Shown: positions 670 through 30,239 of the stretch, one piece after another
Layout: every line of letters begins with the position of its first letter
How positions within the stretch are numbered: position 1 is the stretch's first letter
Assembly (NCBI GenBank): GCA_964354895.1
Contig: CAYHCR010000001.1
Span: 1-37,013, forward strand
DNA: 37,013 nt
Direction: 5' to 3'
Origin: an uncultured Myxococcales bacterium
GTDB taxonomy: Bacteria; Myxococcota; Myxococcia; Myxococcales; Vulgatibacteraceae
Notes under the pieces: generated by a model
The model's database searches: none
Seen by the model: the letters and a program-made list of their open reading frames with translations, nothing else
Told to the model about the DNA's origin: nothing
Program-made: the position numbers and the translations under genes

Positions 670-674
670 CACCC

Positions 675-5341
<4,667 letters not shown>

Positions 5342-5345
<4 letters not shown>

Positions 5346-7534: not shown

Positions 7535-9499
7535 TCAGTGGAACGTCACGCCCGTGTAGGCGGTGGCGTTGCCGTCGCCGTCGGAGTCGACGCTCATGCC
7601 GACGCCGGCCGGGTAGAGATCGAACTCCTCGTTCATGCTCCCCGGCGTCCAGTAGACGCCCTGGTACGGCACGTCCGGGACGGTCGCGAGGTTGTTCTCG
7701 ATCGCGTACTCGAGCGCCGCGTCCTGGCGCAGCTGGTACGCCTCCGCCGCGATGTCCGCGAAGCCCAGGTTCGACTCCGCCCAGCCGTACCAGTGCGCGT
7801 AGTCCGGGTTCATGTGGTACGCGCCGTGCCACGTCTTCACGAAGTCATACTTGTAGAGCTTGAAGTAGAGCCGCTCCGCCTCCGAGAGGTTGCGGTAGAT
7901 CATCGGGCCGCCGAGCACGAGCGTGCCGGGCGCGGCGTCGGGGTTGTTCGGGCGACCCATCGCCGAGCCCGGCGTCGGCGGCCGCAGCAGGCCGTCGAAG
8001 TAGAGCGCCTTGAGGATGTCTGCGGCCTCGTCGACGACCACGTGGACGTTCTCGTGCATGCCGTCGGCGATCTCCAGCCGCTCCGCCGCGTTGTTGCGGG
8101 CGTGGCAGCCGGTGCAGACATCGAGCATCTCCTCGCGCCGCGCCGTGAGCACGTTTGCGGGATCCACCACCTGCACGATCGTGCCGTCGCGATCGTCGGG
8201 GAAGGCGGAGTCGGCGAGGCCGTCGGCGCCGGCCATGTCGAAGGGTGCGGCGGGATCCCAGGCGGGGTTCTCCTCGATCGCCGTGCCATTCATCACGTAG
8301 GGCAGCTCGCCGCCGCGGCGGAAGCTGCGGTGGGAGGGCATGCCGCCCACCGGTCCATACGCGATGCCGTACGAGAGATCGTGGTCGGTGTAGGGCCGGC
8401 CGTTCACGTCGACGCCCTTCTTCGGCATGTGGCAGTCGCTGCAGGTGGGCGCGCGGCCGCGGCCTTCCGTCTCGTAGACCACGCCGTGCTTGCTGGTCGT
8501 GTAGATCTCGTACTGCGAGTGATCCGGGCCCATGTGGCAGGTGCCGCAGGCGAGCGGCTCCTGCGCCTGCTTTGCGTCGAAGAGGTGGCGGCTGTGGCAG
8601 GAGTCGCACTTGTCCTCGACGTTGTGACAGTTCGAGCAGGTCGCGACGCCGCCCGAATAGATGTCTCCGTTCGCCGTACAGGGCGGCAGGTCGTCGAACC
8701 GGCCGGCCTCGAACATCCGCTGCCAGCCGATGGAGTGGCGGTTCGCCTGGTGGCCGCGGTACTGCGCCGGGTGGCACGTCGCGCAGGTCGCAGGCGACGG
8801 CATCGGGTTGTGGTTCGGCGCGCCGGCGACGTCCGTGCCGTGGCACTCCTGGCACGAGACCTCCTCCGCCATCTTGCTCGCCTTGTAGTCGGCGACGACG
8901 CCGTCGGTCATGAGCGCGTGGCAACCGATGCAGAGATCGGACTCGGCCTTCCACGAGCCGAGCGCGAGCGCGACGTCGACCACGCCGTTGGCGACGACCG
9001 AGACGTGCAGGGTGGCAGGCGCATACATTCCGTTTCCGGCGTTCACCTCGTACGTGCCGATCGGGAGCGTGAAGGAGAACGAGCCGTCGATCGCCGTGAC
9101 CACTTCCGCGGCCTCGGCCGGGAGGATCGAGACCGTCGCGCCGCCGACCGTCGTGCCGCCGGCCGTCTCGGTGACGACGCCGCGCAGGGTGCCGTGCCAG
9201 AGGCCGTCCGCGCCGGGCCCGCCGTCCTGGCCGTCGAGGCCGGGCGCGCCGTCAGCGCCGGGGGCGCCATCGACGCCGGGGGCGCCGTCAACGCCGGGGA
9301 CGCCGTCCTCCCCGTCGACACCATCCACACCATCGACACCATCCGCACCGTTCGCGCCATCCGCGCCGGGGAGACCGACGCCGCCCGCGGGGCCCTGCGA
9401 CCCGTCCGCGCCCGCCGCACCGTCTTCGCCTCCGCACGCGACCAGTACGATCGCCAAGCATCCGCTCAAGATTCCGCCGAGGACTCTGCTCCGCGCCAT
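7535..9499 (-). CDS. Lipoprotein: collagen-like G-X-Y stalk + CarboxypepD_reg-like beta-sandwich + octahaem c-type cytochrome of the hydroxylamine oxidoreductase (HAO)-like type (654 aa)
   Basis: AGGAGG lies 5 nt upstream of the ATG at 9499. Signal peptide with lipobox LVAC (Cys22). 25 uninterrupted G-X-Y triplets. Eight CxxCH motifs (CIGCH, CQECH, CATCH, CSNCH, CDSCH, CGTCH, CSDCH, CTGCH) followed by a long helical C-terminal region. Confidence 0.85.
   Translation of the reverse strand: MARSRVLGGILSGCLAIVLVACGGEDGAAGADGSQGPAGGVGLPGADGANGADGVDGVDGVDGEDGVPGVDGAPGVDGAPGADGAPGLDGQDGGPGADGLWHGTLRGVVTETAGGTTVGGATVSILPAEAAEVVTAIDGSFSFTLPIGTYEVNAGNGMYAPATLHVSVVANGVVDVALALGSWKAESDLCIGCHALMTDGVVADYKASKMAEEVSCQECHGTDVAGAPNHNPMPSPATCATCHPAQYRGHQANRHSIGWQRMFEAGRFDDLPPCTANGDIYSGGVATCSNCHNVEDKCDSCHSRHLFDAKQAQEPLACGTCHMGPDHSQYEIYTTSKHGVVYETEGRGRAPTCSDCHMPKKGVDVNGRPYTDHDLSYGIAYGPVGGMPSHRSFRRGGELPYVMNGTAIEENPAWDPAAPFDMAGADGLADSAFPDDRDGTIVQVVDPANVLTARREEMLDVCTGCHARNNAAERLEIADGMHENVHVVVDEAADILKALYFDGLLRPPTPGSAMGRPNNPDAAPGTLVLGGPMIYRNLSEAERLYFKLYKYDFVKTWHGAYHMNPDYAHWYGWAESNLGFADIAAEAYQLRQDAALEYAIENNLATVPDVPYQGVYWTPGSMNEEFDLYPAGVGMSVDSDGDGNATAYTGVTFH
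9206..9430 (-). repeat. Collagen-like triple-helix repeat coding tract (25 x G-X-Y, Asp-rich)
   Basis: The translation reads GED GAA GAD GSQ GPA GGV GLP GAD GAN GAD GVD GVD GVD GED GVP GVD GAP GVD GAP GAD GAP GLD GQD GGP GAD. The underlying DNA contains 9-nt periodic repeats. Confidence 0.8.
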
Positions 9500-9724: not shown

Positions 9725-10117
9725 GTGGACGGGGCGCGATGCGTGCGCGATGCTGGCGCCGTGCGACGCCTTGCCCTGCCCCTCCTGCTGCTCTCCGCCG
9801 GCTGCTTCCCCGAGCGGCCGCCGATCTCGCTGTTCGGCGAGCTCTGCGGCAACGGCCTCGACGATGACGCCGACGACCTCGTCGACTGCGCAGATCCGGA
9901 CTGCGCCGCAGCGTGTGACGGCGTGACCGGGGCGATCGAGAGCGACTGCAGCGACGGCGCGGACGACGACGACGACGGCCTCGAGGACTGCGAGGACCCC
10001 GACTGCGCCTCGCAGTGCGACGACGTCGAACGCGACTGCGAGGACGGCGTCGACGACGACGGCGATGGCGCGGTCGACTGTGCCGACGACGACTGCAGCG
10101 GCGAGACGGGTTGCTGA
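9725..10117 (+). CDS. Small secreted lipoprotein made of three Asp-rich four-Cys repeats (putative Ca2+-binding module)
   Basis: Lipoprotein signal RRLALPLLLLSAGC. In-frame GTG starts at 9725, 9743 and 9761, with the later ones giving a more typical signal peptide length. Three repeats follow the pattern C-x-[DN]-G-x-D-D-D-x-D-x-x-x-D-C-x-D-x-D-C-x3-C. Confidence 0.6.
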   Translation: MDGARCVRDAGAVRRLALPLLLLSAGCFPERPPISLFGELCGNGLDDDADDLVDCADPDCAAACDGVTGAIESDCSDGADDDDDGLEDCEDPDCASQCDDVERDCEDGVDDDGDGAVDCADDDCSGETGC

Positions 10118-13125: not shown

Positions 13126-14292
13126 TCAGTACGAGATGCCGTACTCCTTCGCCCGGCTCTTGACGTCCTTCATGACGTTCGCGTCGAAGGAGTCGGCCTT
13201 CTCGGCGACGTTCTTGCTCTTCCACTCCTCACGCTTCTTCGCGACCTCGACCGCCTTGGCCTCGAGCTTCTTGCGCTCGCCGGCCAGCTTCTCGACGTGG
13301 GCGACGCGGGCGTCCCCGTCCATCCCGGCGAGCGCGCCGTCGAGCTGATCCGCCGCGAAGTTGCGGACCTCCGAGGGCTTCGCGAGCAGGTCCACCGCGC
13401 CGGTCGTGGGCGCCGGGGCCGCCGCCGCCGGCATGCCGCCTGCGCCGGACTTGCTGAGGAACCCGAGCCGGTCCGCCGCCGCTTCCGGCGCCATCTCGGC
13501 GAAGTCCCGCGCCTTGCGGGCCGAGGCCGCGCGGGCCTCGCCCTTGCCGGCGAAGATCGTCTTGCTGGCGATCTCGGAGTTGATCTTCGAGAGCTCGTCG
13601 TCGAAGGGCGTCGCGACCGCGACCATGCCGCCCGCCTGGCCGATGGAGACGAAGGAGCCGTCGGCGAGCTTCGCGAGGGAGGCGAACTGCGTCGCCGTGT
13701 CGGGCGCCTCACCGCAGCGCACCGTGTTCACCACGATGCCCTTCTGGATGGCCGCCTTCGCCCACGTCTTCGCCGAGTAGCCGTCGTCGTACTCCTGCGC
13801 GGGCGCGTCGCCGACCAGGAAGATCATCTTCATCGTCTTCTTGTCGGCCGACCACTGCATGCCCTGCACCGCGTCCGCGAGCCCCTTGCCGACGTGCTCC
13901 GGCCAGTCGCCGCCGCCGCCCGCGGAGAAGGTCTTCAGGTTCGCGTAGACGGTGTCGAGGTCCTCGGTCAGGTCGAACTTCTTCGTGACGTACTCGTCGC
14001 CGCGATCGCGGTAGCCGACGAGCCCGACGCGGATCTTCGGGGTGGGCTTGCCCTCCGCCATCTTGGAGGCGATCGACCAGATCTTCTGCTTGGCGCCCTC
14101 GAGCAGTCCGCCCATCGAGCCGGTCGTGTCGAGCACGAAGACGACGTCGATCTGCGGGCGATCCTGCGGGCCGCGCGCCTGCGCTCCGGCCGGTTCGGCC
14201 TCGTCACGGGCGAGGGCGGGCGCTGCGAAGAGCGCCGCGATCGTCGCGACGGCGAGGACGAGGAGCGTGCGGGACTTGGGGCTCGGGTTCAT
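13126..14292 (-). CDS. Secreted von Willebrand factor type A (vWA) domain protein (388 aa)
   Basis: ATG at 14292 with GGAGAG upstream. Signal peptide MNPSPKSRTLLVLAVATIAALFAAPALA. MIDAS-like VFVLDTTGSMGG. Lys/Glu-rich helical C-terminus. The track ORF was trimmed from 14622. Confidence 0.8.
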   Translation of the reverse strand: MNPSPKSRTLLVLAVATIAALFAAPALARDEAEPAGAQARGPQDRPQIDVVFVLDTTGSMGGLLEGAKQKIWSIASKMAEGKPTPKIRVGLVGYRDRGDEYVTKKFDLTEDLDTVYANLKTFSAGGGGDWPEHVGKGLADAVQGMQWSADKKTMKMIFLVGDAPAQEYDDGYSAKTWAKAAIQKGIVVNTVRCGEAPDTATQFASLAKLADGSFVSIGQAGGMVAVATPFDDELSKINSEIASKTIFAGKGEARAASARKARDFAEMAPEAAADRLGFLSKSGAGGMPAAAAPAPTTGAVDLLAKPSEVRNFAADQLDGALAGMDGDARVAHVEKLAGERKKLEAKAVEVAKKREEWKSKNVAEKADSFDANVMKDVKSRAKEYGISY

Positions 14293-14453
14293 CGGGGGTC
14301 TCTCCTGGCGGTGGATGGCGGCGGTGCCGCGATGGGGAGATTCCACGCGCGGCGTCACGGAACGATCTGCGCGCTCGAAAATCGGCCCGATTCCGGGGGC
14401 TTGCGGAGGTGGGCGCGCTTGCGGGCCGAAGACGGCGCCGCTACAGGAGCACG

Positions 14454-15224
14454 ATGACGCTCGCGTACACGTCGATCGGCGAGGGCGAACGCCCGACCGC
14501 GCTGCTGCACGGGTTCCTCGGCTCCGGTCGCAACCTCTCGGCGCTCGCGCGCGCATTCTCCGCCCGAGCGCCCACCCGCCGGTTCCTGCTGTTTGATCTG
14601 CCGGGCCACGGCGCCTCGGCAAAGCTGCCCGACGGGGCCACGCTCGACACGCTGGCGGCGCTGCTGCTCGACAGTCTTGACGCGCTCGCCCTGCCCTCGC
14701 CCGTCGACGTGATCGGCCACTCGCTCGGCGGCCGCGTCGCGCTCGCGGCCCGGGCGCTGGCCCCCGAGCGGCTCGGCGCGGTGACCCTGCTCGACATCGG
14801 CCCCTCCCCGATCACGCTGCCGGGCGGCAGCCACCTCGCGCTCCAGCGCCTGCTCGCGGCGCCGGATCGAGCGCCGAGCCGAGAGGCGTTCCGGGCGGCG
14901 CTCGCGGGGCCGGGGCTGTCGGCAGGACTGGTCGATTGGCTGCTGATGAACGTGGTGCGCGAGGGCGACAGCTTTGTCTGGCGGATCGACCGCGCGGCCC
15001 TCGACGCGCTGCACCCGCGCGTGAACGCCGCCGATCTCTGGGCCGCGATCCGCGCACCTGGAAACGCGCTGCGCTGTATCCGCGGCGAACACGGCGGCTA
15101 CGTGAGCGACGAGGACCTCGCCGCGATGCAGGCGCTCGGCGTGTCGGTCGCGACGCTCGAGGGCGCCGGCCACTTTCTCCACGTCGACGCGCCCGACGCG
15201 CTGCTCGAGGCGCTGCTCCAATAG
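14454..15224 (+). CDS. Alpha/beta-fold hydrolase (esterase-like, 256 aa)
   Basis: ATG at 14454 with AGGAG upstream. HGFLGSG oxyanion region, nucleophile elbow GHSLGG, and C-terminal GAGHFLHVD (catalytic His). Confidence 0.8.
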   Translation: MTLAYTSIGEGERPTALLHGFLGSGRNLSALARAFSARAPTRRFLLFDLPGHGASAKLPDGATLDTLAALLLDSLDALALPSPVDVIGHSLGGRVALAARALAPERLGAVTLLDIGPSPITLPGGSHLALQRLLAAPDRAPSREAFRAALAGPGLSAGLVDWLLMNVVREGDSFVWRIDRAALDALHPRVNAADLWAAIRAPGNALRCIRGEHGGYVSDEDLAAMQALGVSVATLEGAGHFLHVDAPDALLEALLQ

Positions 15225-15277
15225 CCCCTCGACGAGCCCTCGCGCGCCGTGTCACCCTTGGAGGTCGGAGGGTACAC

Positions 15278-17527
15278 ATGAAGAAGAGTCTGGTGCTGGC
15301 GCTCACGCTCGTGGGCGTCCTGGGGTTCTCGTCGGCTTGTGATGACGGCGACGGTGGCGATGAAGGCGGCGGCGCGGGCAACGGTGCCGGCGGCAACGCC
15401 ACGGGCGGCTCCGGCGGCAACGCCACGGGCGGCTCCGGCGGCTCCGGCGGCAACGCCACGGGCGGCTCCGGCGGCAACGCCACGGGCGGCTCCGGCGGCT
15501 CCGGCGGCAACGCCACGGGCGGCTCCGGCGGCAACGCGACCGCGGAGATCTGCGACAACACGGCGGATGATGACGGCGACGGCGACGTCGACTGCCTCGA
15601 CGGCGACTGCTTCGCGCACCCGTCGTGCCCCGGCACGGCCGAGGACTGCGGCAACGGCACGGACGACGACGCCGACGGCGCGATCGACTGTGACGACGCG
15701 GACTGCATCGCCGATCCGGGCTGCGCGGGTCCCGTGGAGATCTGCGACAACGCGGACGACGACGACGGCGACGGCGACGCCGACTGCGCCGACACCGACT
15801 GCTTTGCAGATCCGTTCTGCGGCGGCGGCGGCGAGATCTGCGACAACACGATCGACGACGACGGCGACCTCGCGATCGACTGCGACGACGGTGAGTGCGC
15901 GTTCGACCCGGCGTGCCAGATCCCTGAGATCTGCGACAACGGGATCGACGACAACGGCGACGCGAACATCGACTGCGAGGACGCCGGCTGCGCGCAGGAT
16001 CCCGCCTGCCCGCCCGCCGCCTGCCCGTTCGGCACGCTCGCGCTCGGCACGCCCGTGACGGGCACCACGTCGGGCGGCAGCGGCCTCACCGGCGACTGCG
16101 GCGGCGACGGCGCGCCGGAGAACGGCTTCGAGTTCGTCGCGCCCGCAGCGGGCGACTACGTCTTCCACACCGACGGCTCGACCTTCGACACGATCCTCTA
16201 CGTGCTCGACGGCGCCTGCGCCGGCGCGACGCTCGATTGCTCGGACGACGCGCCCGGGATCCGCCCGGCCTCCCTCGTCACGGTGACCCTGACGATGGGC
16301 CAGTCGGTCACCGTCGTGGTCGACGGCTTCGGCGCCTCCCGCGGCGACTACGTGCTGACCGCCACGCAGGCGGTGCCCGAGGTCTGCGACAACAGCCTCG
16401 ACGACGACTTCGACGGCGACCCCGACTGCTTCGACTCGGACTGCGCGGGCGATCCCTCGTGCCCCGCTCACGAGACGGGCCTCTGCGCCGACGGCCTCGA
16501 CAACGACGCCGACTTCGACGCCGATTGCTTCGACTTCGACTGCCAGGGCGACCCGGCCTGCCCGGCGGATGAGGCCGGCCTCTGCGCCGACGGCCTCGAC
16601 AACGACTCCGACTTCGCGACCGACTGCGACGACCGGGACTGCCTCGGCGATCCGGCCTGCCCGAGCGAGTTCGGCCAGTGCACGGACGGCCTCGACAACG
16701 ACGCCGACGCCGACATCGATTGCTTCGACTTCGACTGCTCGACGGATCCGGCCTGCACGGAGACCGGCGCGCAGTGCAGCGACGGCCTCGACAACGACGG
16801 CGACTTCGACGTCGATTGTGACGACTTCGACTGCTTCGGCGACGCGGCCTGCACGGAGACCGGCGCGGAGTGCGGCGATGGCCTCGACAACGACGGCGAC
16901 TTCTCCACCGACTGCGAGGACTTCGACTGCCGCAATGAGATCGCGTGCATGGAAGATCCGGCGACGCAGTGCGCCGACGGCCTCGACAACGACGGCGACT
17001 TCGCCACCGACTGCGAGGACTCGGACTGCGCGACGGCCGTGACTTGCTCGGAGTCTGCGGCGCAGTGCGGCGACGGCCTCGACAACGACAACGACGGCGC
17101 GATCGACTGCCTCGACTTCCGCGACTGCGGCGCGACGCCTGCCTGCGCGGGCTTCGTCTGCTTCGACGTGGACGCGGGCGACACGGTGCCGCAGACCCTC
17201 CTCGGCGGGACGGCCAACTCGGGCAACGACTACCGGGACCTCTCCTGCGGTTCGGGCGGCGTGGACGCGAACGATCTCTCGTACGAGTTCACCGCGCTGC
17301 TCGCCGGGGACTACACCTTCTCGACGGCGACCGCGCCCGTGGACACGATCCTCGAGGTCCGAGACGCGACCTGCGGTGGGAGCGTGCTCGGCTGCAACGA
17401 CGACGCGGTCGGCACGACCTCGAGCGTCACGCTGCCGCTCACGGCCGGCCAGACCGTCATCGTGATCGTCGACGGCTACGACGCCTCCGACGTGGGGCTC
17501 ATCCCGCTCGCGATCACCAGCCCGTAG
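15278..17527 (+). CDS. Lipoprotein: Gly/Asn/Ser linker with NAT repeats, 5 + 8 Asp-rich four-Cys repeats, two PPC (pre-peptidase C-terminal)-like beta-sandwich domains (749 aa)
   Basis: GGAGG lies 6 nt upstream of the ATG at 15278. Signal MKKSLVLALTLVGVLGFSSAC. 13 repeats follow the pattern C-x-D-[GN]-x-D-[DN]-D-x-D-x3-D-C-x-D-x-[DE]-C-x2-D-P-x-C. Two ~110-aa segments show the PPC-like pattern (...GDYVFHTDGSTFDTILYVLDG...VVVDGFG...GDYVLTA). Confidence 0.85.
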   Translation: MKKSLVLALTLVGVLGFSSACDDGDGGDEGGGAGNGAGGNATGGSGGNATGGSGGSGGNATGGSGGNATGGSGGSGGNATGGSGGNATAEICDNTADDDGDGDVDCLDGDCFAHPSCPGTAEDCGNGTDDDADGAIDCDDADCIADPGCAGPVEICDNADDDDGDGDADCADTDCFADPFCGGGGEICDNTIDDDGDLAIDCDDGECAFDPACQIPEICDNGIDDNGDANIDCEDAGCAQDPACPPAACPFGTLALGTPVTGTTSGGSGLTGDCGGDGAPENGFEFVAPAAGDYVFHTDGSTFDTILYVLDGACAGATLDCSDDAPGIRPASLVTVTLTMGQSVTVVVDGFGASRGDYVLTATQAVPEVCDNSLDDDFDGDPDCFDSDCAGDPSCPAHETGLCADGLDNDADFDADCFDFDCQGDPACPADEAGLCADGLDNDSDFATDCDDRDCLGDPACPSEFGQCTDGLDNDADADIDCFDFDCSTDPACTETGAQCSDGLDNDGDFDVDCDDFDCFGDAACTETGAECGDGLDNDGDFSTDCEDFDCRNEIACMEDPATQCADGLDNDGDFATDCEDSDCATAVTCSESAAQCGDGLDNDNDGAIDCLDFRDCGATPACAGFVCFDVDAGDTVPQTLLGGTANSGNDYRDLSCGSGGVDANDLSYEFTALLAGDYTFSTATAPVDTILEVRDATCGGSVLGCNDDAVGTTSSVTLPLTAGQTVIVIVDGYDASDVGLIPLAITSP
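15389..15541 (+). repeat. Perfect tandem DNA repeat (24-bp unit ggcggcaacgccacgggcggctcc, organised as 57-bp higher-order units) encoding (GGNATGGS)n
   Basis: Identical 24-bp units at 15389, 15413, 15446, 15470 and 15503, with a partial unit at 15527. A 9-bp ggcggctcc insert follows every second unit. Six N-A-T tripeptides result. Confidence 0.85.
15545..16009 (+). repeat. Array 1 of Asp-rich four-Cys repeats (5 copies, ~31 aa each)
   Basis: EICDNTADDDGDGDVDCLDGDCFAHPSC / EDCGNGTDDDADGAIDCDDADCIADPGC / EICDNADDDDGDGDADCADTDCFADPFC / EICDNTIDDDGDLAIDCDDGECAFDPAC / EICDNGIDDNGDANIDCEDAGCAQDPAC. Confidence 0.85.
16379..17146 (+). repeat. Array 2 of Asp-rich four-Cys repeats (8 copies, ~32-33 aa each)
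   Basis: Repeats have the form [LQE]C-x-DGLDND-x-DF-x-x-DC-x-D-x-DC-x-x-D-x-AC. Long stretches are near-identical at the DNA level (for example tgcgccgacggcctcgacaacgac at about 16486, 16573 and 16971). Confidence 0.85.
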
Positions 17528-17590: not shown

Positions 17591-17709
17591 GTCGTTGGAG
17601 CGACCGCGGCCTTCGTCGGCCCGCCGACCGATCCCTTCCTCGTCACAACGGCCGATGATCGTTGACGTTTCACGGCCCCGCTGCTACTGCCGCGCCCGTG
17701 CAGCCGGGC

Positions 17710-20700
17710 ATGAAGATCGTCCACAGGGCGCAGCCGACCTGGGGCGTCGGCGAGGTCCTCGGACTCCGCGAGCAGGGACGGTTCCTCGAGGTCCGCTTCA
17801 GCGGTCGAGGTCGAGATCCGATCCTCGTCTCCGCCAAGGACCCCGCGCTCGCGCGCCACCGCTTCCAGCCCGGCGACGAGGTCTCCCTCGCGCTCGGTGG
17901 CTCAGGGGTCGTCCGCGAGGCGCTCCCCACGACGGGCCCCGCGCTCTTCCAGTACCAGGTCGAGCTGCAGGGCCAGGTGCAGGCAGAGCTGCGGACCTGC
18001 TCGGAGCTGGAGCTCGTCCCGAAGCCGCCGAAGGCCGGCGCGCTCGAGCTGCTCTCCCGCGGCCGCGGCGGGGAGCCCTCCGCGTTCGCGCTGCGCCAGC
18101 AGGCCGTGCGGCTCGATCTGGAGCGACGCGCCGACGCGCTCGGCGCCCTCTTCGGCAGCCGCGTGATGCCCAAGCCCCACCAGCTCTCGGTCGTGCACCG
18201 CGTGCTGGCCGCGCGGCAGCCGCGCTTCGTGCTCGCCGATGAGGTCGGCCTCGGCAAGACGATCGAGGCCGGCATGGTCTACGCCGCGCTCCGGCAGGCG
18301 GGCCTCGCGCGCCGCGTGCTCGTCGTCGCGCCGAGCCACCTGACCGTGCAGTGGCTCGGGGAGCTCTTCCACAAGTTCCACTCGCTCTTCACGCTCGTGG
18401 ACGAGGAGCGCGTCCGCAAAGAGGAGGACGGCGACGATCCGCGGCCGATCTGGTGGCGGCACGATCGCATCGTGACGTCGCTCGAGCTGCTCGCCGGGAG
18501 CGAAGAGCACCAGGAGGCGATCGCCGCAGAGGAGGCCGAGTGGGATCTGGTGATCTTCGACGAGGCGCACCACCTGGCCCACGACGACAGCTATGCAGCT
18601 GCAGAGGCGCTCGCCGACAACACCCACGGCCTGCTGCTCCTGACCGCGACGCCGCTGCAGCTCGATCCGGTGGAGCACTTCAAGCTTCAGCTGCTGGTGG
18701 ATCCCGCGGCGCCGGAGAGCTTCGAGGCCTTCGAGCAGCGGCTCGAGCGGCAGGGCGAGATCTCCGACGCCACGCGCCGCCTGCTCTCCGCGACCTCCGG
18801 CGAGACGGCCGCCGCGGCCGCCGCCGACATCCTCGCGTTGCTCCCGCGGGACCCGAAGCTCGTCGACGCGGCCGCCCGCATCGCGGCGCCGGGGGACGAC
18901 GGCCGACGTGCGCGCGAGGCCTTCGTCGGCCACCTCGCCGAGACCTACTCGATCTCCTCGCGCCTCATCCGCAACCGGCGCGCGATCGTCGGCGGCCTCT
19001 CCGCGCGCAAGCTCGTCCGCCACGACGTGACCCCCGCGCCCGAGGAGCTCGCGCTCGTCCAGCGCGTCCGCGAGGCGGTCGTCGAGGGCACGCTCAAGGC
19101 GACGCCCTTCGCGCTCGTGCAGCTCTACCGCCGCCTCGGCTCTTCGCCCCGCGCCGCCGCGGCCGCGCTCGTGAGCGCAAAGCTGCCCGAGCTCGCCGCG
19201 GTCGCGCGCCAGCTCGAGAGCGCGCCGCTGGATCGCAAGACCGCCGCGCTGCTGGAGCTGGTGGCGAAGGTCCGCGCCGCGGAGCCTGGCGCAAAGCTGC
19301 TCGTGTTCTCCGAGACCAGGGAGAGCCTCGAGTACCTGCGCGAGCGGCTCGGGCGCGCGGGCGTCGCGGCGGGCCTGTACCACGGCGATCTCACGCAGCT
19401 GGATCGCGACCGCGCGGTGGCGCGCTTTCGAGATCCCGACGGGCCGGAGGTGCTGCTCTCCACCGAGGTCGGCGGCGAGGGGCGCAACTTCCAGTTCTGC
19501 CACCACCTCGTGCACTACGATCTTGCCTGGAGCCCCGCGGCGATCGAGCAGCGCATCGGCCGCATCGATCGCATCGGCCAGCGCCACGAGGTGATGGTCC
19601 ATGCCTTCCGCGTCGCCGGCACGATGGGCGCGCACGTCTACGACCTCTTCGCCGACGCGGTGCGCGTCTTCGAGGAGACGGTCGGCGGGCTCGATCCGGT
19701 GCTGGAGATCGTGGAGAACGATCTGGGGCGGCTGGCGCTGCAGGGAGATCCGGCGGCGTTCGCGCGCTACGGCAACCTGCTCGCCACGCGCGTCGCGGAG
19801 GCGCGGGAGGAGATCAAGCGCGCGTACGATCCGCTGCTGGATCTGCGCTCCTTCGACGGCCCGGCGGTGGCAAAGCTGCTCGATCGGGCGTGCGCGCGGC
19901 TCGAGCTCGAGACCAGCGAGGACGACTCGCTCGAGGTGCGCCTCGACGGCATCGCCCGCGAGCTCGACGAGCGGCTCGAGGAGACGGTGATCGCGCTCGC
20001 GCGCCGCGTCGGGATCCAGGTCGACACCGACGAGCAGGTCGACGCGTTCCAGTGCCTCTTCAAGGTCGGCGGCGAGACCGAGGCGGACGCGCTGCCGGGC
20101 CTCGCGCTCGACGACGGCGAGCGCCAGTGGCTCGGATCTTTCTGGCGCGACACGGCGGTCGTGCAGGAGGAGCACGACTACTTCGCGACCGGACACCCGC
20201 TCGTAGAGGCGCTCTTCGGCCACTGCCGCGACGGCGAGCTCGGCCGTGCCACGTGGATCGAGACCGAGCTGCTCAAGAGCGCGTCGCTCGGCTTCGCCTT
20301 CCACTTCCTGGTGGGGATGCCGGAGGCGGAGGACCTCGCCGCCGGCGCGAAGATCCCCTCGCGACAGGCCGCGCGCCAGCTGGCGTTTCATCGGATCGAC
20401 GTCGGCGTCGAGTGGACGCGCGGCTCGGTGCGACCGCACGTGCGCGATGAATTGCTGCAGGCGCTCCAGGACGAGCAGCCCGAGCCGGCGCGCGCGCCGG
20501 GCGCTGGATCTGCAGAGCTGGCAGCGGCGGTCGAGGCGGCGTGGGGGCTCGCGAGGGCCGAGGCGCATCGCCGCCTCGCGCGGGAGCTCGCCGCGGCCGA
20601 TCAGCGCATGATCGCGGAGCGCGACACCGCCGTAGAGCGGCTGGCGCTCGCCTCCGAGCGCGCCGAGCCCGACGAGCGACGGCTGCTCGCGCTCGAGGCG

Positions 20701-20793
20701 CAGAAGCTCGAGGAGTGGCACTCCGTCTGCGTCGGGGCGCTCCGGCAGGCGACGCTGGAGCTCGATCAGGCCGCCGGGCTCGTCCCCGCCTGA
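17710..20793 (+). CDS. rapA: SNF2-family ATPase, RNA polymerase-associated RapA (HepA)-like (1027 aa)
   Basis: The N-terminal Tudor-like region (WGVGEVL...RFQPGDEV) parallels the E. coli RapA N-terminus. Helicase motifs LADEVGLGKTIEAG, FDEAHHL, LLLTATPLQ, and the C-terminal helicase lobe (LVFSETRESL..., QRIGRIDRIGQ). ATG at 17710 is preferred over the TTG at 17662. Confidence 0.8.
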   Translation: MKIVHRAQPTWGVGEVLGLREQGRFLEVRFSGRGRDPILVSAKDPALARHRFQPGDEVSLALGGSGVVREALPTTGPALFQYQVELQGQVQAELRTCSELELVPKPPKAGALELLSRGRGGEPSAFALRQQAVRLDLERRADALGALFGSRVMPKPHQLSVVHRVLAARQPRFVLADEVGLGKTIEAGMVYAALRQAGLARRVLVVAPSHLTVQWLGELFHKFHSLFTLVDEERVRKEEDGDDPRPIWWRHDRIVTSLELLAGSEEHQEAIAAEEAEWDLVIFDEAHHLAHDDSYAAAEALADNTHGLLLLTATPLQLDPVEHFKLQLLVDPAAPESFEAFEQRLERQGEISDATRRLLSATSGETAAAAAADILALLPRDPKLVDAAARIAAPGDDGRRAREAFVGHLAETYSISSRLIRNRRAIVGGLSARKLVRHDVTPAPEELALVQRVREAVVEGTLKATPFALVQLYRRLGSSPRAAAAALVSAKLPELAAVARQLESAPLDRKTAALLELVAKVRAAEPGAKLLVFSETRESLEYLRERLGRAGVAAGLYHGDLTQLDRDRAVARFRDPDGPEVLLSTEVGGEGRNFQFCHHLVHYDLAWSPAAIEQRIGRIDRIGQRHEVMVHAFRVAGTMGAHVYDLFADAVRVFEETVGGLDPVLEIVENDLGRLALQGDPAAFARYGNLLATRVAEAREEIKRAYDPLLDLRSFDGPAVAKLLDRACARLELETSEDDSLEVRLDGIARELDERLEETVIALARRVGIQVDTDEQVDAFQCLFKVGGETEADALPGLALDDGERQWLGSFWRDTAVVQEEHDYFATGHPLVEALFGHCRDGELGRATWIETELLKSASLGFAFHFLVGMPEAEDLAAGAKIPSRQAARQLAFHRIDVGVEWTRGSVRPHVRDELLQALQDEQPEPARAPGAGSAELAAAVEAAWGLARAEAHRRLARELAAADQRMIAERDTAVERLALASERAEPDERRLLALEAQKLEEWHSVCVGALRQATLELDQAAGLVPA

Positions 20794-23260: not shown

Positions 23261-24517
23261 ATGGCTCGCGCGACCCAGGGCCCACGGGTCATCGCCGTCG
23301 GCGGTGGGAAGGGCGGCGTCGGCAAGAGCCTGATCGCCGCGAACCTCGCCGTGGCGATGGCGCTCGCCGGCCGGGAGACGGTCGCGATCGACCTCGACCT
23401 CGGCGCCGCAAACCTGCACACGCTGCTGGGCCTCGAGCGAACCTCGGCGACGCTGCACGACGTGCTCGACGGGACGCTCGACGGCTTCGAGGCGGCCGCG
23501 GTCGCGACGCCGATCCACAGGCTTCGACTGGTCGCGGGCACCAACGGACGACCCGGCGCGGCGAACCCGAACGGCGGGCAGAAGGCGCGGCTCATCAAGC
23601 AGGCGCGCCGGCTCGACGCGGAGGTCGTCGTGCTCGACCTCGGCGCGGGCACCTCGTTCAACCCCGTCGACTTCTTCCTCGGCGCCGATCTGCGGGTGCT
23701 CGTCGTCACCCCCGAGCTCGGCTCGCTGCAGAACGCGTATGGGTTCGCGAAGGCGGCCCTCTACCGCGACGTGCAGCGGCTCGCGGCAGACGACGTCGAG
23801 ACCGCCCTCTTCGAGCGCTCCCGCGAGAGCCGCACGCGCCTGTCGGAGGTCCTCGCGGATGTCGCGAAGGAGCGGCCCGCGCTCGCGACGGCGGCGCGTC
23901 GACACGTCGCGGCGTTCGGCGGCTGCATCATCGGCAACCAGGTGCTCGAGCCACGCGACGTCACCGTGCCCAGGGCGCTCGAGCGGCTGCTCGGAGATTT
24001 CCTGGGCCTCGATGTGCCGGTGATCGCGAGCCTCAAGGCGAGCCGGCCAATCCGCGACTCGATCCAGCGGCGAAGGCCGTTCGTGCTCGACGCCGGCGCC
24101 GAAGAGAGCTCCCGCCAGCTCCACGCGGCGGCCAAATGGCTGCTCGAGTCCGACGTCGAGGCGCTGCGGTATCTCCGCGACGATCTCGACGAGTCCATCC
24201 TTCCCGCAGCGCCCGGCGCGCTCCCGGCGGCCCCACCCCCGGAGACGAGCACGCACCTGCGCCACGAGCACCGGCTCCTCGTCGACCTGCCCGGCCAGCT
24301 GCTGCTCGACGGCACTCCGCACGCTGCACGCCTCAAGGATCTCTCCGAGGGCGGCGGACTTGTGCAGGCGCAGCTCGAGCTCGCCATCGGCTGCAGGCTC
24401 GCGCTGGCGGTGCCCGCGTTATGGCGGGGCGCGCGGCCCGTCGAGATCCGCCACTCAGATCGGGGCGCGTTCGGCGTGCGGTTCCTCGACGTGCCGGCGC
24501 TCGAGCTGCCGTCATGA
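23261..24517 (+). CDS. ParA/MinD-type P-loop ATPase fused to a C-terminal PilZ (c-di-GMP-binding) domain (418 aa)
   Basis: GGTGAGGA upstream of the ATG. Deviant Walker A GGGKGGVGKS and Walker B VVVLDLGAG. PilZ signatures RHEHR (RxxxR, aa 334-338) and DLSEGG (DxSxxG, aa 360-365). Confidence 0.8.
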   Translation: MARATQGPRVIAVGGGKGGVGKSLIAANLAVAMALAGRETVAIDLDLGAANLHTLLGLERTSATLHDVLDGTLDGFEAAAVATPIHRLRLVAGTNGRPGAANPNGGQKARLIKQARRLDAEVVVLDLGAGTSFNPVDFFLGADLRVLVVTPELGSLQNAYGFAKAALYRDVQRLAADDVETALFERSRESRTRLSEVLADVAKERPALATAARRHVAAFGGCIIGNQVLEPRDVTVPRALERLLGDFLGLDVPVIASLKASRPIRDSIQRRRPFVLDAGAEESSRQLHAAAKWLLESDVEALRYLRDDLDESILPAAPGALPAAPPPETSTHLRHEHRLLVDLPGQLLLDGTPHAARLKDLSEGGGLVQAQLELAIGCRLALAVPALWRGARPVEIRHSDRGAFGVRFLDVPALELPS

Positions 24518-26747: not shown

Positions 26748-29700
26748 TCAAGCGCTCGCGCGGCGGCGCCGCGAAACGGTTGCGAGGCCAAAGAGCAGCA
26801 GCGCCGCGAGCTCGAACGAGCTGCCCGTCCGGCCCGCCCCACAGCCGCAGCCCGATTCCTCCTCCACCAGCAGCGCGTCCGCGCCGCCACCGCCATCGAG
26901 GAGGCCGCCGGCTCCGCCCGCGCCGGGGTCGCAGATCGCCGCGCCGAGGCAGTCCGCATCGTCGCAGTCGGTCTGCCCGTCCCGATCGTCGTCGCGCCCG
27001 TCGTCGCACGCGAGCTCGCGCGCAGCGGCCGCGCCCCCGGCACCGCCGGCCCCGCCCGCCCCGCCGCCGCCGCCTGCACCGCCGCCGCCCGCGCACGCCG
27101 GATCGCCCGCGCAGTCGGCATCGTCACAGTCCGTCCCGCCATCGCCGTCGCCATCGACGCCGTCCGTACACGAGCCCTCCACCGGCAGCCCGCCGGCCGG
27201 CCCCGGGTCGGTCCCCGCGGCGCACTCCTGCGCGAGCGTCGCGCCGTCCTGATCGACGTCGCTGCTGCCGTCTGCCGCGTCGCGCCCGTCGTAGCCGTAC
27301 TGCGCCTCGCAGGCGTCGCTCGCCCCGTCGAGATCGAGATCTCCGCCTGAGACGCCGGGCAACAGCGAGCGCAGCGCCGCGTCGAAGACGCGCAGCCGAT
27401 CAGCCGCCGGCACGATCGCCTCGATCGGCGCGCCGAAGAAGACGACGTTCGACTTCGCGATGACCGCCGCGCCGCCCGTGCCGTAGCGCATCGCGATCCG
27501 ACCACCGGACGCGCCCTCGTCGAGCACGTCGGGATAGACGACCTCGTAGACACCGCCGGTCCCGTCGTCGATCCGCACGCTGGCGATCGCCTCGAAGGGC
27601 CCGCCCGCGACGCCCGTGAGCTCGTACGAGTCGGCGTCGTCGGAGAGGTAGGTGACGCCCAGCGTCTCGGTGAGGAAGACGCCGTCGCGCACGTCGTCGC
27701 TCGTCTCGACGAGCGCGTAGCCGATCTCCTCGCCCGAGATCAGCAGCTTGCCGCCGCCCGCGAGATAGACGCCCATCAGCCCCTGCATCGCGGACGAGAT
27801 CGGCTCATCTGCGGAGGAGTCCTTGCCCGCCGCGTAGTCGACCGCCGCGTAGCCCGCGAGCGGCACCGTCCCGTCGAGCACCGCCTCGTCGAGCGCCCCG
27901 TCGAAGAAGAGCGCCCCGCCGAGCGAGCCGGCGATCGCGCCGCCGTGCTCCACGGCGTACTGCAGGTCGTTGTCGCGATCCTGCACCCACGCGTCCCGGC
28001 GGTCGTAGGCCTGGACGAAGAGCACTTGCGCAGCTGCCGCGCCTGCGGGCAGCACGGCGCCGCGCACGCGCGCGGAGACGGCCTGCGACGCCATGCCCTC
28101 GCCGTTCGCGGAGAGGGCAGCGACGCGCAGCGCGAGCGTCGTGCCTGACGCGATCGAAGGGAACGTGTGCTCGGTGCCGCGCACCAGCTCGCCGGCGTCC
28201 CAGCCGCGGCCGCCGGTCGCCCGATAGAGCCGGTAGGCCTCGGCGCCCGGGGTCGCGGCCCAGCGCACGCGCAGCGAGCCGTCGGACAAGTTCTGCGCCA
28301 CGAGCCCGTCGGGGCGCGGCGGCGGCGCGCCGGCGCCCGGATTCAGGAACTGCGCGAGCCCCTCCGCGACGCCGTACGCGAACGCCTCGCGCCAGCGCGG
28401 GTCATGCAGCGCGCGGTTGTCGGCGTAGCGCGGCGGCGGCGAGCCCGACGGCGACGCGACGTTGTCGAAGAAGCCGGTCTCGATCAGCACGCCCGGCATG
28501 TCGTCGAGCGTGCGCAATTCGCCGAAATTCGCGACGCGCTTGCCGCGATCGCCGAAGTTCGGATCGAAGTCGCCGCGCAGCCGCGAGAGCACGGCCCCGT
28601 GCACCAGTTCAATCAGCTGCGTCGAGCCCGGCGGATCATCGCAGCCGGTCGCGGCCGCGGAGGTGCTGTGATCTCCGTAGGTCGAGCACGAGTAGCGGTA
28701 GGTCGACAGGCCGTTCGCCCCTGAACCGCCGTCGACGCCGGACGCGTTGGCGTGGATCGAGACGTACGCCTCCGCGTCGACGTACTCGGCATAGGCGGGC
28801 CGGATGCTGACGTCGCCGTACTGCGTGACGTTCGCATCGGCGCCGGCCCACGGCACGAACGAAGCGGCGCCCATCTCCCACCACGGCTTGCCCGAGCCGG
28901 TCCACGTCCCGCCGCCAAGCTTCACGGCGTCCGCGATCAGGTAGCCATCGGCGCTGCCGTTGCGCAGCGTCACCGACGCCGCGCCGGGCGCGAAGAGCCA
29001 GCGCCCCAGGTCGAGCCAGGTGTCGGTCGGCACCCGCTGATCGAGATCGACGAGCGTCGTCCCGCCGACGTGCACGATCTCCACGAGCGCCGCGGGCGTC
29101 CGATTTCCCCCGGCGACGAAGCGCATCGAGAGGTGCTGCTCCCCGACGTCGTTGACCGGCAGCTCGTAACGCACGGACCCCGCGGCGCCCGGCTCGAGCA
29201 CGCGGTAGTCGTCGCCGTAGCCACCGGGGTTGTTGCCCGCGCTCCACGCGCCGGTCTCGACGACGCCCGCGTCGCCGTCGTCGAGGATCGAACCATCGCC
29301 GCCGTGGTCCGGCTCCCGCACGAGCACGACCTCGGCGCCCATGCCCTGCAGCAGCGGCAGCAGCTGGTTGGTGACGACCTCGGCCGTGAAGAAATCTTCC
29401 AGGATCCCGCGGCAATTTCCGCAGCCCGTGAAGTTCCAGCGGCTGCGCTGCGTGCGCCAGCCGCCCGCGCCGTCGTCGAGCCAGCCGTGGCCCGCGACGA
29501 GCGCGATCCTCCGGCCGAGCAGCGCGCCGCCGAGCGGCAGGCGGGGCGTCGCGATCGGACGCACCATCGCCTCGCGGGGGACCGGGCGAAGCAGCGGCGC
29601 CGGCAACTCCCGCGGCTCGACGCCGTAGGGCAGCAGACGGCCGCCGCGCCGCACGAGGAGGTGCACGCCGTCCTCGACGCCGAACGCTGCGAGCGCGCCG

Positions 29701-29987: not shown

Positions 29988-30239
29988 GTCCCGGAGAGAC
30001 AACGATCCGGCGGGTCGGGTCAACCCCCGACCGGTGCGCCGCGCCCCCAGAGGTGTGACGGCCGATCGGCCTGCCTCCCGCGACCGCGCGCTCGACGCGT
30101 ACGGGCTCGCGGGGAGACATCGTCGGGTTCCTCGCTCCGATCGGGCCGCCACCGCCGACAGAGGCCCACGTCGGCGCCTTGTCGCCCGATGGGCGACCCG
30201 CTAGGACCCTCGCTCGTACCTCTCGACCCAAGAGGTCTC

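Follow-up and report, generated by a model that had tools for sequence, protein, structure and literature searches.

An acidic double-disulfide repeat protein with PPC-like domains in a myxobacterium, and its homology to the teneurin C-rich domain

The Repeat Gene and Its Window

The DNA considered here, referred to as the window, is a stretch of 37,013 nucleotides from an uncultured myxobacterium. At 15278-17527 on the forward strand lies a gene of 749 uninterrupted codons (the repeat gene), running from an ATG at 15278 to a stop codon at 17527. A GGAGG-type ribosome-binding site is found 5-11 nt 5' of the ATG. Third codon positions are 94.5% G+C (GC3), and the G+C content of the gene resembles that of its flanks. 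A search around the gene revealed neither a sigma-70-like promoter nor an intrinsic terminator, a result that is uninformative in a myxobacterium of 72% G+C.

The product consists of a predicted lipoprotein signal, a tether rich in Gly, Asn, Ser and Thr, five repeats, a beta-sandwich, eight repeats and a second beta-sandwich. This layout, with PPC-like domains after each array, had been proposed in a first-pass annotation of the window and is borne out by translation, by a pattern scan and by hidden Markov models (HMMs). The features of the gene are as follows.

15278-15340 (+): signal peptide with lipobox (MKKSLVLALTLVGVLGFSSA followed by C21), predicted lipoprotein; from the sequence
15341-15544 (+): low-complexity Gly/Asn/Ser/Thr tether with GGNATGGSGG units; from the translation
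15545-16009 (+): array 1, five acidic double-disulfide repeats, first Cys at residues 92, 124, 156, 188 and 219; regular-expression scan, NF033662
16010-16375 (+): PPC-like beta-sandwich domain A, residues 245-366, four Cys; domain HMM, 2LUW profile, AlphaFold2 (AF2), Foldseek
16376-17146 (+): array 2, eight acidic double-disulfide repeats, first Cys at residues 370, 403, 436, 468, 500, 532, 565 and 597; scan, NF033662, ligand positions, AF2 and Foldseek to 7PLP
17147-17527 (+): PPC-like beta-sandwich domain B, residues 624-749, with the stop codon, paralogous to domain A; alignment of domains A and B, HMM

The product contains 61 Cys: one in the lipobox, 52 in the 13 repeats, whose regular spacing had been correctly described, and eight in the two globular domains, four apiece. 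His and Met are rare (3 each among 749 residues). The mature protein has a net charge of about -163 and a pI of about 4.

Judged from sequence alone, MKKSLVLALTLVGVLGFSSAC fits the PROSITE-type lipobox rule. The lipobox Cys is followed by Asp at +2, and the inner membrane, the outer membrane and the surface are all possible destinations. The protein may sit at the cell surface, as was first suggested; the one localisation feature seen is the predicted lipoprotein signal. The C-terminus (...LIPLAITSP) gave no match in the NCBIfam scan to MYXO-CTERM (TIGR03901), whose hallmarks are a Cys-containing motif, a transmembrane helix and a basic tail. Within the tether, Tandem Repeats Finder (TRF) detects a perfect tandem repeat at 15387-15537, with a period of 57 nt, 2.6 copies and 100% matches.

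The same module had been reported from two further genes in the window, and both reports hold.

9725-10117 (+): second gene, a 130-residue predicted lipoprotein (LLLLSAGC) with three repeats; scan, NF033662
26748-30152 (-): third gene, with Golvesin_C, Amidase_3 and fn3 domains, two repeats and a MYXO-CTERM-like tail; Pfam, NF033662

The three copies of the second gene were located within 9845-10114 (+) by the six-frame scan, and its NF033662 match (E=5.3e-20, 3 stretches) lies above the cut-off. In the third gene, one repeat was found at 26931-27008 (-) by the regular expression and another at residues 995-1020, approximately 27093-27170, by a looser pattern and the HMM; here, too, the NF033662 match (E=5.4e-13) exceeds the cut-off. 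Its tail scores 18.6 bits against TIGR03901, for which the cut-off is 20, and among the three genes only this one ends in such a tail. The true start of this gene is probably an internal MRRSLV signal peptide near 29987.

The Acidic Double-Disulfide Repeat

Scanning the six frames with a regular expression places five copies at 15551-16009 and eight at 16385-17146, 13 in all. All four Cys are kept in every copy. Their register is C-x13-C-x4-C-x5-C in 12 copies, and copy 13 has a one-residue insertion. Asp and Glu make up 34% of array 1 and 32% of array 2, in agreement with the earlier estimate of one acidic residue in three; the consensus given for array 2 was also correct.

The repeat belongs to the curated NCBIfam family NF033662, "acidic double-disulfide repeat" (acid_disulf_rpt). 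The protein scores 206.7 bits against a curated cut-off of 41 bits (E=1.8e-62), far beyond what chance would give, with 13 matching stretches, the best of which spans positions 1-32 of the 32-position model and shares its four Cys and acidic context. A profile search of public data found repeats of this type in at least 12,026 protein clusters at 50% identity. The suggestion of a lineage-specific, possibly undescribed family therefore fails, since the curated model matches over its full length and in the same Cys register, the very outcome that the first-pass annotation had named as refuting it. It fails also because publications from 2012 onwards describe the likeness to teneurin and MopE-type motifs (PMC3278476, PMC6425310). 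A literature search on the name and accession of NF033662 returned no papers, and neither a publication nor an experiment on the curated family. The repeat gene is genuine yet unremarkable among the members of this very large family.

The repeat is also joined to other partners, among them S8 and trypsin-like proteases, an amidase, and LTD, SRCR and FGE-sulfatase domains, as expected of a generic extracellular spacer module.

In a Pfam scan of the whole protein, nothing rises above threshold; the nearest models are PPC (E=0.22) and a conotoxin model (E=0.036). MopE-type motifs, thrombospondin type 3 repeats, dockerin and LDL-A modules had been named as possible overlaps, and none of these models matches the protein. 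The scans rule them out as memberships: TSP_3 (PF02412), Ldl_recept_a (PF00057) and dockerin (PF00404) are absent, and PF11617 (Cu-binding_MopE, gathering score 27 bits) has no match even at E<=10.

Homology to the Teneurin C-Rich Domain

The sole solved relative of the repeat is the C-rich domain of teneurin (PDB 7PLP, human teneurin-4 residues 834-871; Meijer et al. 2022, PMC9058538). Profile searches of the PDB return teneurins alone, with 7PLP at E=8.1e-8 and 6.6e-7 and chains of Ten-2, Ten-4 and Ten-m besides. An AF2 model of four repeats (pLDDT 76, pTM 0.38) leads to the same structures, and its PDB matches in Foldseek are teneurins only. It superimposes on 7PLP with an rmsd of 0.9-1.2 A over 27-30 residues at 47-52% identity (TMt 0.61-0.63, probability 0.82-0.87), and the E value of 0.19 reflects the small size of the domain. 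The similarity thus extends over the whole domain in both sequence and fold. Neither the PDB profile searches (E<=1) nor Foldseek returned a thrombospondin, LDL-receptor or dockerin chain.

In the 1.5 A structure of the teneurin-4 domain, three octahedrally coordinated Ca2+ ions are accompanied by disulfides 1-3, 2-5 and 4-6 (PMC9058538). The ions are structural and fully coordinated. Ligands and disulfides were compared using the list and pattern from the same paper. Eight of the nine side-chain ligand positions hold Asp, Asn or Glu in all 13 repeats, save +18, which is Asp or Glu in 11 of 13. Since the Cys register and these ligand positions are shared, the description of the repeat as Ca2+-loaded and disulfide-stapled, first made from the sequence, is well supported through homology, and the repeats may work as the teneurin domain does, as small domains built around Ca2+ and disulfides. 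AF2 models carry no ions, and the Ca2+ stoichiometry and disulfide pairing suggested for the repeats come from the comparison with teneurin-4. In teneurin-4 the third Ca2+ site is completed by a Glu three residues before the first Cys. This Glu is out of register here: an acidic residue stands at -2 in array 1 and at -4 or -5 in array 2. Each repeat may accordingly bind two Ca2+ ions instead of three.

The teneurin consensus has six Cys, ExxCx(D/N)xxDx(D/E)xDxxxDCxxx(D/E)CCxxxxCxxxxxC (PMC3278476, PMC6425310). The repeats match its acidic positions and four of its Cys but have neither the Glu at -3 nor the second Cys of the CC doublet nor a sixth Cys. The repeat is thus a homologous module and not a six-Cys domain of teneurin type.

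The arrays have been pictured as a rigid rod, and such a form is conceivable for a chain of these domains. Between-repeat geometry is not defined by the four-repeat model because of its low pTM.

The Interleaved Beta-Sandwich Domains

The PPC-type nature ascribed to the two interleaved domains is supported by profile and by fold, at the level of the superfamily that joins PPC and collagen-binding domains. The domain matches the metalloprotease PPC structure 2LUW over 84 residues (profile E=2e-7). The AF2 model has an overall pLDDT of 85, with most 10-residue blocks of the domain at 92-97. Domain A finds 5SV5, the PPC domain of a Bacillus anthracis collagenase, in Foldseek at E=1.8e-5, together with 1NQJ, 1NQD and 3JQW, the collagen-binding domains of ColG and ColH. 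The best matches have probability 1.0, and 5SV5, 1NQJ and 3JQW have E of about 2e-5 and TMt of 0.65-0.78 (1NQJ_A: TMt 0.78, rmsd 2.9 A).

In Pfam, the gathering score of PPC (PF04151, 25.9 bits) is not reached; domain A alone gives a match, of 12.8 bits (E=0.22), and PF23759 (GBD_T9SS_assoc) has none on this protein. The counterpart domains of homologues do match PF04151 or PF23759. Against a profile of the family, domains A and B each score E of about 1e-41. The alternation of repeats and such domains recurs, with 275 domain instances in 87 of the best 120 homologues.

Repetition at the DNA Level

Identical stretches of more than 20 nt had been noted among the copies and attributed to recent duplication or gene conversion. 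The stretches are present; the explanation is unneeded. Exact identities of 20-30 nt occur only among repeats 7-13 and mostly cover the codons of the invariant C-x-DGLDND-x-D core; one stretch, of 20 nt, falls instead in the linker that joins repeat 9 to repeat 10. Whole units are 49-81% identical. Conserved residues and extreme codon bias (94.5% GC3) are enough to explain the identities, and gene conversion was set aside as their source for this reason.

Open reading frames on the opposite strand (14812-16089 and 16468-17226) encode low-complexity Ser/Pro/Ala sequence and share high-G+C third positions (GC3 0.94, GC2 0.66). Their earlier dismissal as artefacts is reasonable, since the forward frame alone is supported by HMM, homologues and structure.

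Relatives of the Locus

The syntenic comparison covered five helicase-containing loci (L001-L005), from the five nearest genomes found. An alpha/beta-hydrolase gene adjoins the helicase gene, except in L004, where an antisense histidine-kinase-like ORF lies between the two. The repeat gene is flanked by the same two genes in the window and is not at this site in any of the five. A homologue of the second gene is kept in L004, at 65% identity. The five genomes reveal no conserved neighbourhood that would hint at a particular ligand or pathway. For a LysR gene nearby, the only records are on low-coverage ENA metagenome contigs.

The repeat protein has no close orthologue, its best match having 43% identity over 50% of the query, and an exact-sequence look-up in the gene-call index did not find it. 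The two intergenic flanks have no direct or inverted repeat of at least 9 nt in common. Because the flanks are free of such scars and the composition of the gene is like theirs, insertion by a mobile element is not supported. As to the concern, raised in the first-pass annotation, that the gene might be a pseudogene or missing from close relatives, the reading frame is intact, and the absence applies to this site in the five nearest genomes.

Proposed Function

The reading that we consider probable is that of a predicted exported lipoprotein in which a Ca2+-stabilised stalk presents binding modules, and which acts as an adhesin or scaffold of the envelope or surface. In its host, an uncultured Vulgatibacter-related Myxococcota bacterium, the product would be exported as a lipoprotein, with a lipidated Cys21 followed by a flexible Gly/Asn/Ser/Thr tether of about 70 residues. 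By homology to teneurin, each repeat would fold around 2-3 Ca2+ ions, held by invariant Asp or Asn at +2, +5, +6, +7, +9, +13, +16 and +18 from the first Cys, and would contain two disulfides (C1-C3 and C2-C4), the counterparts of C838-C857 and C852-C863 in teneurin-4. The arrays would then be Ca2+-dependent, protease-resistant spacers that keep the two beta-sandwiches off the membrane. The beta-sandwiches are the likely ligand-binding parts; a matrix, polysaccharide, protein or prey-surface ligand may be envisaged. The protein as a whole would serve as an envelope or surface adhesin or scaffold. Its stiffness, its localisation and the nature of its ligand all belong to the conjectural side of this picture.

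Other readings give the same parts a different weight. PPC domains are typical of secreted peptidases. The protein, itself catalytically empty, could accordingly be a scaffold or targeting partner of secreted hydrolases, which docks or presents proteases or amidases, or else a decoy or competitor for the sites at which they bind substrates. Peptidases of the S8 and trypsin-like kinds do carry homologous repeat-plus-PPC modules (P0079, P0104, P0119), the third gene of the window joins the repeat to Amidase_3, and the structural neighbours of the PPC-like domain serve collagenases in substrate binding. The repeat gene has no peptidase gene next to it, however, and we regard this role as unlikely; it largely overlaps the adhesin or stalk reading, because both give the PPC domains a binding role. 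Somewhat less likely still is a high-capacity Ca2+ buffer or store in the envelope, resembling calsequestrin, with about 26-39 predicted sites per molecule that would take up or release Ca2+ and PPC domains that are incidental. The strong negative charge, the low pI and the conserved ligand positions of each of the 13 repeats would suit such a store. Yet the ions of the solved teneurin homologue are structural and fully coordinated (PMC9058538), the repeat serves as a spacer in enzymes and binding proteins across the family, and the two PPC-like domains are strictly conserved both here and in the 87 homologues, which favours a binding function.

The Pfam name Cu-binding_MopE raises the question whether the bound ion is copper or some other transition metal. 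Of 32 related repeat segments, 6 have a weak PF11617 match, none of them from the window (best E=1.4e-5), and in homologues PF11617 overlaps the N-terminal half of six-Cys variants; an alignment of the teneurin and MopE motifs was made by Tucker et al. (PMC3278476). A transition-metal binder is nevertheless very improbable, given the failure of PF11617 to match the repeat protein itself, the all-oxygen Asp/Asn ligands, the scarcity of His and Met, the predicted engagement of all repeat Cys in disulfides and the Ca2+ bound by the teneurin homologue (PMC9058538). Least credible of all is a non-functional reading frame, recently inserted or decaying, or an artefact of high G+C content. Its absence from the syntenic site in the five nearest genomes, the distance of its best homologue and the lack of a gene-call record would fit that idea, but the long open frame with its codon bias and ribosome-binding site, the retention of four Cys and ligand positions in every repeat, the family-profile scores of both PPC-like domains and a G+C content like that of the flanks all oppose it.

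Possible Origin of the Teneurin Module

Taken by itself, the gene is of little weight, being one more multi-repeat envelope protein in a family of more than 12,000 clusters with a curated model. The eukaryotic homologue, solved at 1.5 A, gives bacterial members a testable model of 2-3 Ca2+ ions and two disulfides per 32 residues. A full-length, same-register counterpart that is abundant in Myxococcota also bears on the origin of the teneurin C-rich domain, for which the teneurin literature has so far offered only a diatom enzyme, proposed in 2012 (PMC3278476), and the MopE motif. No other phylum is as rich as Myxococcota in the teneurin-like toxins of bacteria (PMC13018210).

A speculative proposal, which we hold to be possible but rather doubtful, is that NF033662 repeats are the prokaryotic source of the Ca2+ module of teneurins and that their tandem arrays are Ca2+-switchable stalks. 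The module would have passed from a surface lipoprotein of myxobacterial type into the choanoflagellate and metazoan lineage, together with the YD-shell, and the diatom enzyme would not be its source. The arrays would be extended and stiff when loaded with Ca2+, and collapsed or protease-sensitive on its withdrawal, in parallel with the Ca2+-dependent compaction of teneurin-4. Three long family members were considered as teneurin-like YD proteins and rejected: P0123, P0130 and P0217 carry Dicty_CTDC, FGE-sulfatase, LTD and SRCR domains instead, and this small sample contains no bacterial combination of C-rich domain and YD shell.

Comparison with Known Systems

NF033662 family. The repeat gene shares the 32-residue unit, the four Cys and the Asp-rich core, and there is no difference at the level of the repeat. 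Its 5+8 array with two PPC-like domains is without a close orthologue.

MopE-type motif. PF11617, a putative metal-binding motif, has the core C-x-[DN]-G-x-D-[DN]-D-x-D-G-x-x-D in common with the repeat, and in homologues its match runs into the N-terminal half of the six-Cys repeat variant. Its register and Cys pattern differ.

Thrombospondin type 3 and LDL-receptor class A modules. These are small extracellular units stabilised by Ca2+ and disulfides, as the repeat would be. In the teneurin C-rich domain, Ca2+ sites I and II are similar to type 3 repeats, and the likeness to LA modules lies in site III and in the disulfide pattern (PMC9058538).

PPC and collagen-binding domains. Domains A and B share a beta-sandwich of about 120 residues with PPC domains, the collagen-binding domains of clostridial collagenases and PF23759. 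Unlike those systems, they contain four Cys and are set among repeat arrays in a protein without a peptidase domain.

Teneurin C-rich domain. The register C-x13-C-x4-C-x5-C is the same, and the repeats have a counterpart at the position of every one of the teneurin-4 ligands D840, D843, N844, D845, D847, D851, D854 and D856. The teneurin domain has six Cys and three disulfides, the extra one being C858-C869, whereas the repeat has four Cys. Teneurins are eukaryotic type II membrane proteins with a single copy, placed between EGF8 and the TTR domain; the repeat gene instead has 13 tandem copies in a predicted bacterial lipoprotein.

Gene layout

G+C in the window ranges from 67 to 77%. The forward-strand frame of the repeat gene can be read from a TTG at 14936, and an ATG preceded by GGAGG-type purine runs lies inside it at 15278. 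Translation from this ATG gives a product of 749 amino acids. Its N-terminus, MKKSLVLALTLVGVLGFSSAC, is a predicted signal peptide with a lipobox-like motif at its end. The remainder is arranged as follows.

Layout of the predicted protein (gene at 15278-17527, + strand)
aa 22-89: Gly/Asn/Ser/Thr low-complexity tether
aa 90-244: five copies of a 32-residue Cys/Asp repeat
aa 245-366: globular domain A
aa 367-623: eight further repeats
aa 624-749: globular domain B, clearly paralogous to domain A

Of the 61 cysteines, 52 belong to the repeats, each globular domain has four and the last is that of the lipobox. Asp and Glu make up 32-34% of the arrays; for the mature protein the calculated pI is about 4. 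ORFs on the opposite strand, dismissed as artefacts in the first-pass annotation, are indeed ordinary high-G+C shadows: they share third positions with the + frame, show an atypical GC2 of 0.66 and translate into low-complexity Ser/Pro/Ala sequence.

The 5 + 8 copy number, the register C-x13-C-x4-C-x5-C and the second-array consensus of that annotation all recur in the translation, with a one-residue insertion in copy 13. The module was also correctly placed in two other genes.

9725-10117, + strand: predicted lipoprotein of 130 aa with three copies
26748-30152, - strand: two copies in the C-terminal part, then a MYXO-CTERM-like tail

Shared DNA stretches of more than 20 nt had been read as signs of recent duplication or gene conversion. 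The stretches exist, as exact identities of 20-30 nt confined to repeats 7-13, but the conversion reading is over-interpreted. The single exception, 20 nt long, lies in the repeat 9-10 linker; all the others fall on C-x-DGLDND-x-D codons, and whole repeat units are only 49-81% identical. Because GC3 is so high in this frame (94.5%), identical residues are almost forced into identical codons, and recent conversion need not be invoked. The sole clearly recent duplication in the gene is in the tether DNA (15387-15537), where 2.6 copies of a 57-nt unit stand in tandem at 100% identity and encode GGNATGGSGG-type units. Slippage there is likely to be able to vary tether length.

Repeat family

A Pfam scan of the protein gave no model for the repeat. 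NCBIfam, by contrast, holds NF033662, "acidic double-disulfide repeat", which matches 13 stretches of the protein (E=1.8e-62; the longest match spans model positions 1-32 of 32) and the two other module genes with E=5.3e-20 and 5.4e-13. By its own refuting condition, the earlier suggestion of a lineage-specific, possibly undescribed family therefore does not stand. The protein is a further member of a known, curated, very large and experimentally unstudied repeat family, and a search of the available library found no paper that names it.

The family is widespread. Of 8,000 candidates scored in a word-indexed search, 1,229 proteins were significant, most of them named as derived from Myxococcota metagenome-assembled genomes (MAGs). 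Exhaustive HMMER searching with a four-repeat profile gave 12,026 clusters (50% identity) at E<=1e-3, 5,505 at 1e-10 and 1,488 at 1e-30. The module occurs beside S8 and trypsin-like peptidases, amidase, LTD, SRCR, FGE-sulfatase and Dicty_CTDC domains and MopE-type motifs; this occurrence beside many unlike domains marks it as a promiscuous extracellular building block.

Overlap with Pfam models for the MopE-type motif, thrombospondin type 3, dockerin and LDL-A had also been raised, and none of them matches the protein. The last three were absent from Pfam scans of the related segments too. The MopE-type model PF11617 weakly matched only 6 of 32 related segments; in homologues its match begins where one unit ends and extends over the first half of a six-Cys repeat variant. 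It is related to, but distinct from, the repeat described here. The six-Cys variant (C-x-N-x-x-D-D-D-C-D-...-C-C; found in homologues P0022, P0037, P0048 and others) draws these PF11617 matches; it carries one extra Cys within the DDD-x-D loop and another past the last Cys.

Interleaved domains

The label "PPC-like" is right at the level of fold or superfamily. Pfam PPC reaches only 12.8 bits on domain A; a profile of the protein and its homologues (alignment A1) matches 2LUW, a metalloprotease PPC domain whose structure was determined in solution, with E=2e-7. AlphaFold2 gave a confident model of domain A with repeats 3-5 before it and repeats 6-7 after it: the mean pLDDT is 85, and most sandwich blocks reach 92-97. 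The best PDB neighbours of this model are 5SV5, a B. anthracis collagenase PPC domain, and the collagen-binding domains of ColG and ColH (E about 2e-5, probability 1.0, TMt 0.65-0.78). Next come the Tk-SP C-terminal jelly roll, the claudin-binding domain of C. perfringens enterotoxin and CBM6/35 modules.

Equivalents of the domain in homologues pass PF04151 or PF23759 (GBD_T9SS_assoc). By a family HMM, 87 of the 120 best homologues contain such domains, 275 in all, usually with repeats on either side. The alternation of repeats and PPC-like domains is a common myxobacterial design.

Locus and relatives

The gene has the following neighbours.

13126-14622, - strand: secreted-looking vWA protein
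14409-15224, + strand: alpha/beta hydrolase
17662-20793, + strand: RapA/SNF2-type helicase

With the helicase as guide, the five nearest genomes located were an uncultured Myxococcales MAG at 69% identity, a pair of Vulgatibacter assemblies at 62% and a further pair of genomes at 58%. In all five the helicase comes next after the hydrolase gene, at a spacing of just 100-900 nt, and the 2.25-kb repeat gene present between them in the window is absent from each. One of the five (L004) has an antisense kinase-like ORF in this gap and keeps a homologue of the three-repeat mini-lipoprotein about 4.8 kb upstream of the helicase. Given the absence from the same site in these relatives, the gene looks like a lineage-specific acquisition or expansion. 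Database searches found no close orthologue, the best match being 43% identical over half the length; around the gene there was neither an insertion scar nor a compositional anomaly. The source organism seems to be on record solely as low-coverage metagenome contigs.

Other genes in the window

Four other genes encode composite proteins.

291-5345, + strand: 1684-aa fusion of NAD_binding_4 reductase, AMP-binding, PP-binding and acyltransferase domains, presumably resembling the myxobacterial ether-lipid enzyme ElbD
7535-9499, - strand: 654-aa protein with multihaem cytochrome c motifs (PF13447, E=1.3e-26) and collagen triple-helix repeats (PF01391, E=1.2e-10), an unusual pairing
23261-24517, + strand: ParA/MinD-type ATPase with a fused C-terminal PilZ domain
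26748-30152, - strand: large envelope protein in which Golvesin_C, Amidase_3 and fn3 domains precede the two repeats, with a Gly/Ala linker between the repeats; its MYXO-CTERM-like tail scores 18.6 bits, just short of the cut-off of 20

A solved relative of the repeat

A PDB sequence search with the whole protein found 7PLP, a 49-residue teneurin-4 chain (E=0.0044). Profiles of A1 and of A2, an alignment of bacterial four-repeat segments, matched it with E=8.1e-8 and 6.6e-7, and over the repeat these profiles matched only teneurins (Ten-2, Ten-4 and fly Ten-m). The chain is the human teneurin-4 "C-rich domain", solved at 1.5 Å with three fully coordinated Ca2+ ions and three disulfides in the pattern 1-3, 2-5, 4-6 (PMC9058538). 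The ions are bound by E835, D840, D843, N844, D845, D847, D851, D854, D856 and backbone carbonyls (PMC9058538).

Teneurin Cys 1, 2, 3 and 5 are the counterparts of the four cysteines of the repeat. All 13 copies have Asp or Asn where teneurin has D840, D843, N844, D845, D847, D851 and D854, and 11 have Asp or Glu in place of D856. The insertion in copy 13 puts an Asp immediately ahead of the third Cys and may thereby restore the D856 position. The teneurin Glu at C1-3 is out of register here (acidic residues at -2 or -4/-5), whereas most repeats of the two other module genes have it in register.

An AlphaFold2 model of repeats 7-10 (pLDDT 76, pTM 0.38), searched with Foldseek against the whole PDB, gave five matches, all teneurins, with 7PLP first (rmsd 0.9-1.2 Å over 27-30 residues, 47-52% identity). 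The mapping of ligands and cysteines, together with teneurin-only matches in the PDB, identifies the repeat as a four-Cys bacterial homologue of the teneurin C-rich domain. By homology, two to three Ca2+ and two disulfides, C1-C3 and C2-C4, are expected in each repeat, so that both arrays would together carry roughly 26-39 Ca2+ and 26 disulfides. The structural part of the first-pass interpretation is thus largely supported, resting on the solved homologue; the arrays may or may not form a rigid rod, because the repeat-to-repeat geometry of the model is not confident (pTM 0.38).

Two weaker resemblances were seen. PF25024 (EGF_TEN, the teneurin EGF domain) weakly matches 5 of the 32 segments of A2 (best E=0.0029). 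A conotoxin model matches the C-terminal half of one repeat, echoing a conotoxin remark in the teneurin-4 structure paper (PMC9058538).

Proposed role

The protein is predicted to be exported and lipidated at Cys21, and would fold oxidatively in the periplasm; it may reside in the inner membrane, in the outer membrane or at the surface. Each repeat would condense around Ca2+ like the teneurin domain, as the strong homology suggests. Beyond the flexible tether, the two arrays could then serve as Ca2+-stabilised, protease-resistant spacers, and, if collagen-binding domains and the CBM-like relatives are a guide, the two PPC-type sandwiches as the parts that bind.

The data favour none of the rival readings. 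The protein might instead act as a Ca2+ buffer, as a scaffold for secreted hydrolases or as a copper binder. A non-functional ORF is not favoured either: an intact reading frame and the intactness of all the repeats speak against a pseudogene.

Relation to known systems

In teneurin-4, Ca2+ sites I and II are like thrombospondin type 3 repeats and site III is like LDL-receptor A modules; the authors found no other domain of equal overall fold (PMC9058538). Tucker et al. defined the teneurin Cys-rich consensus and noted its likeness to diatom glucanase, algal gametolysins and the Pfam MopE motif PF11617 (PMC3278476), so the connection of teneurins with a bacterial motif is not new. A 2026 paper reports that bacterial teneurin-like proteins are enriched in Myxococcota and does not discuss the module (PMC13018210). 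The literature yielded no explicit recognition of a full-length, same-register four-Cys bacterial family as the counterpart of the C-rich domain. What interest the gene retains lies in this teneurin connection and in an easily testable Ca2+ and disulfide model.
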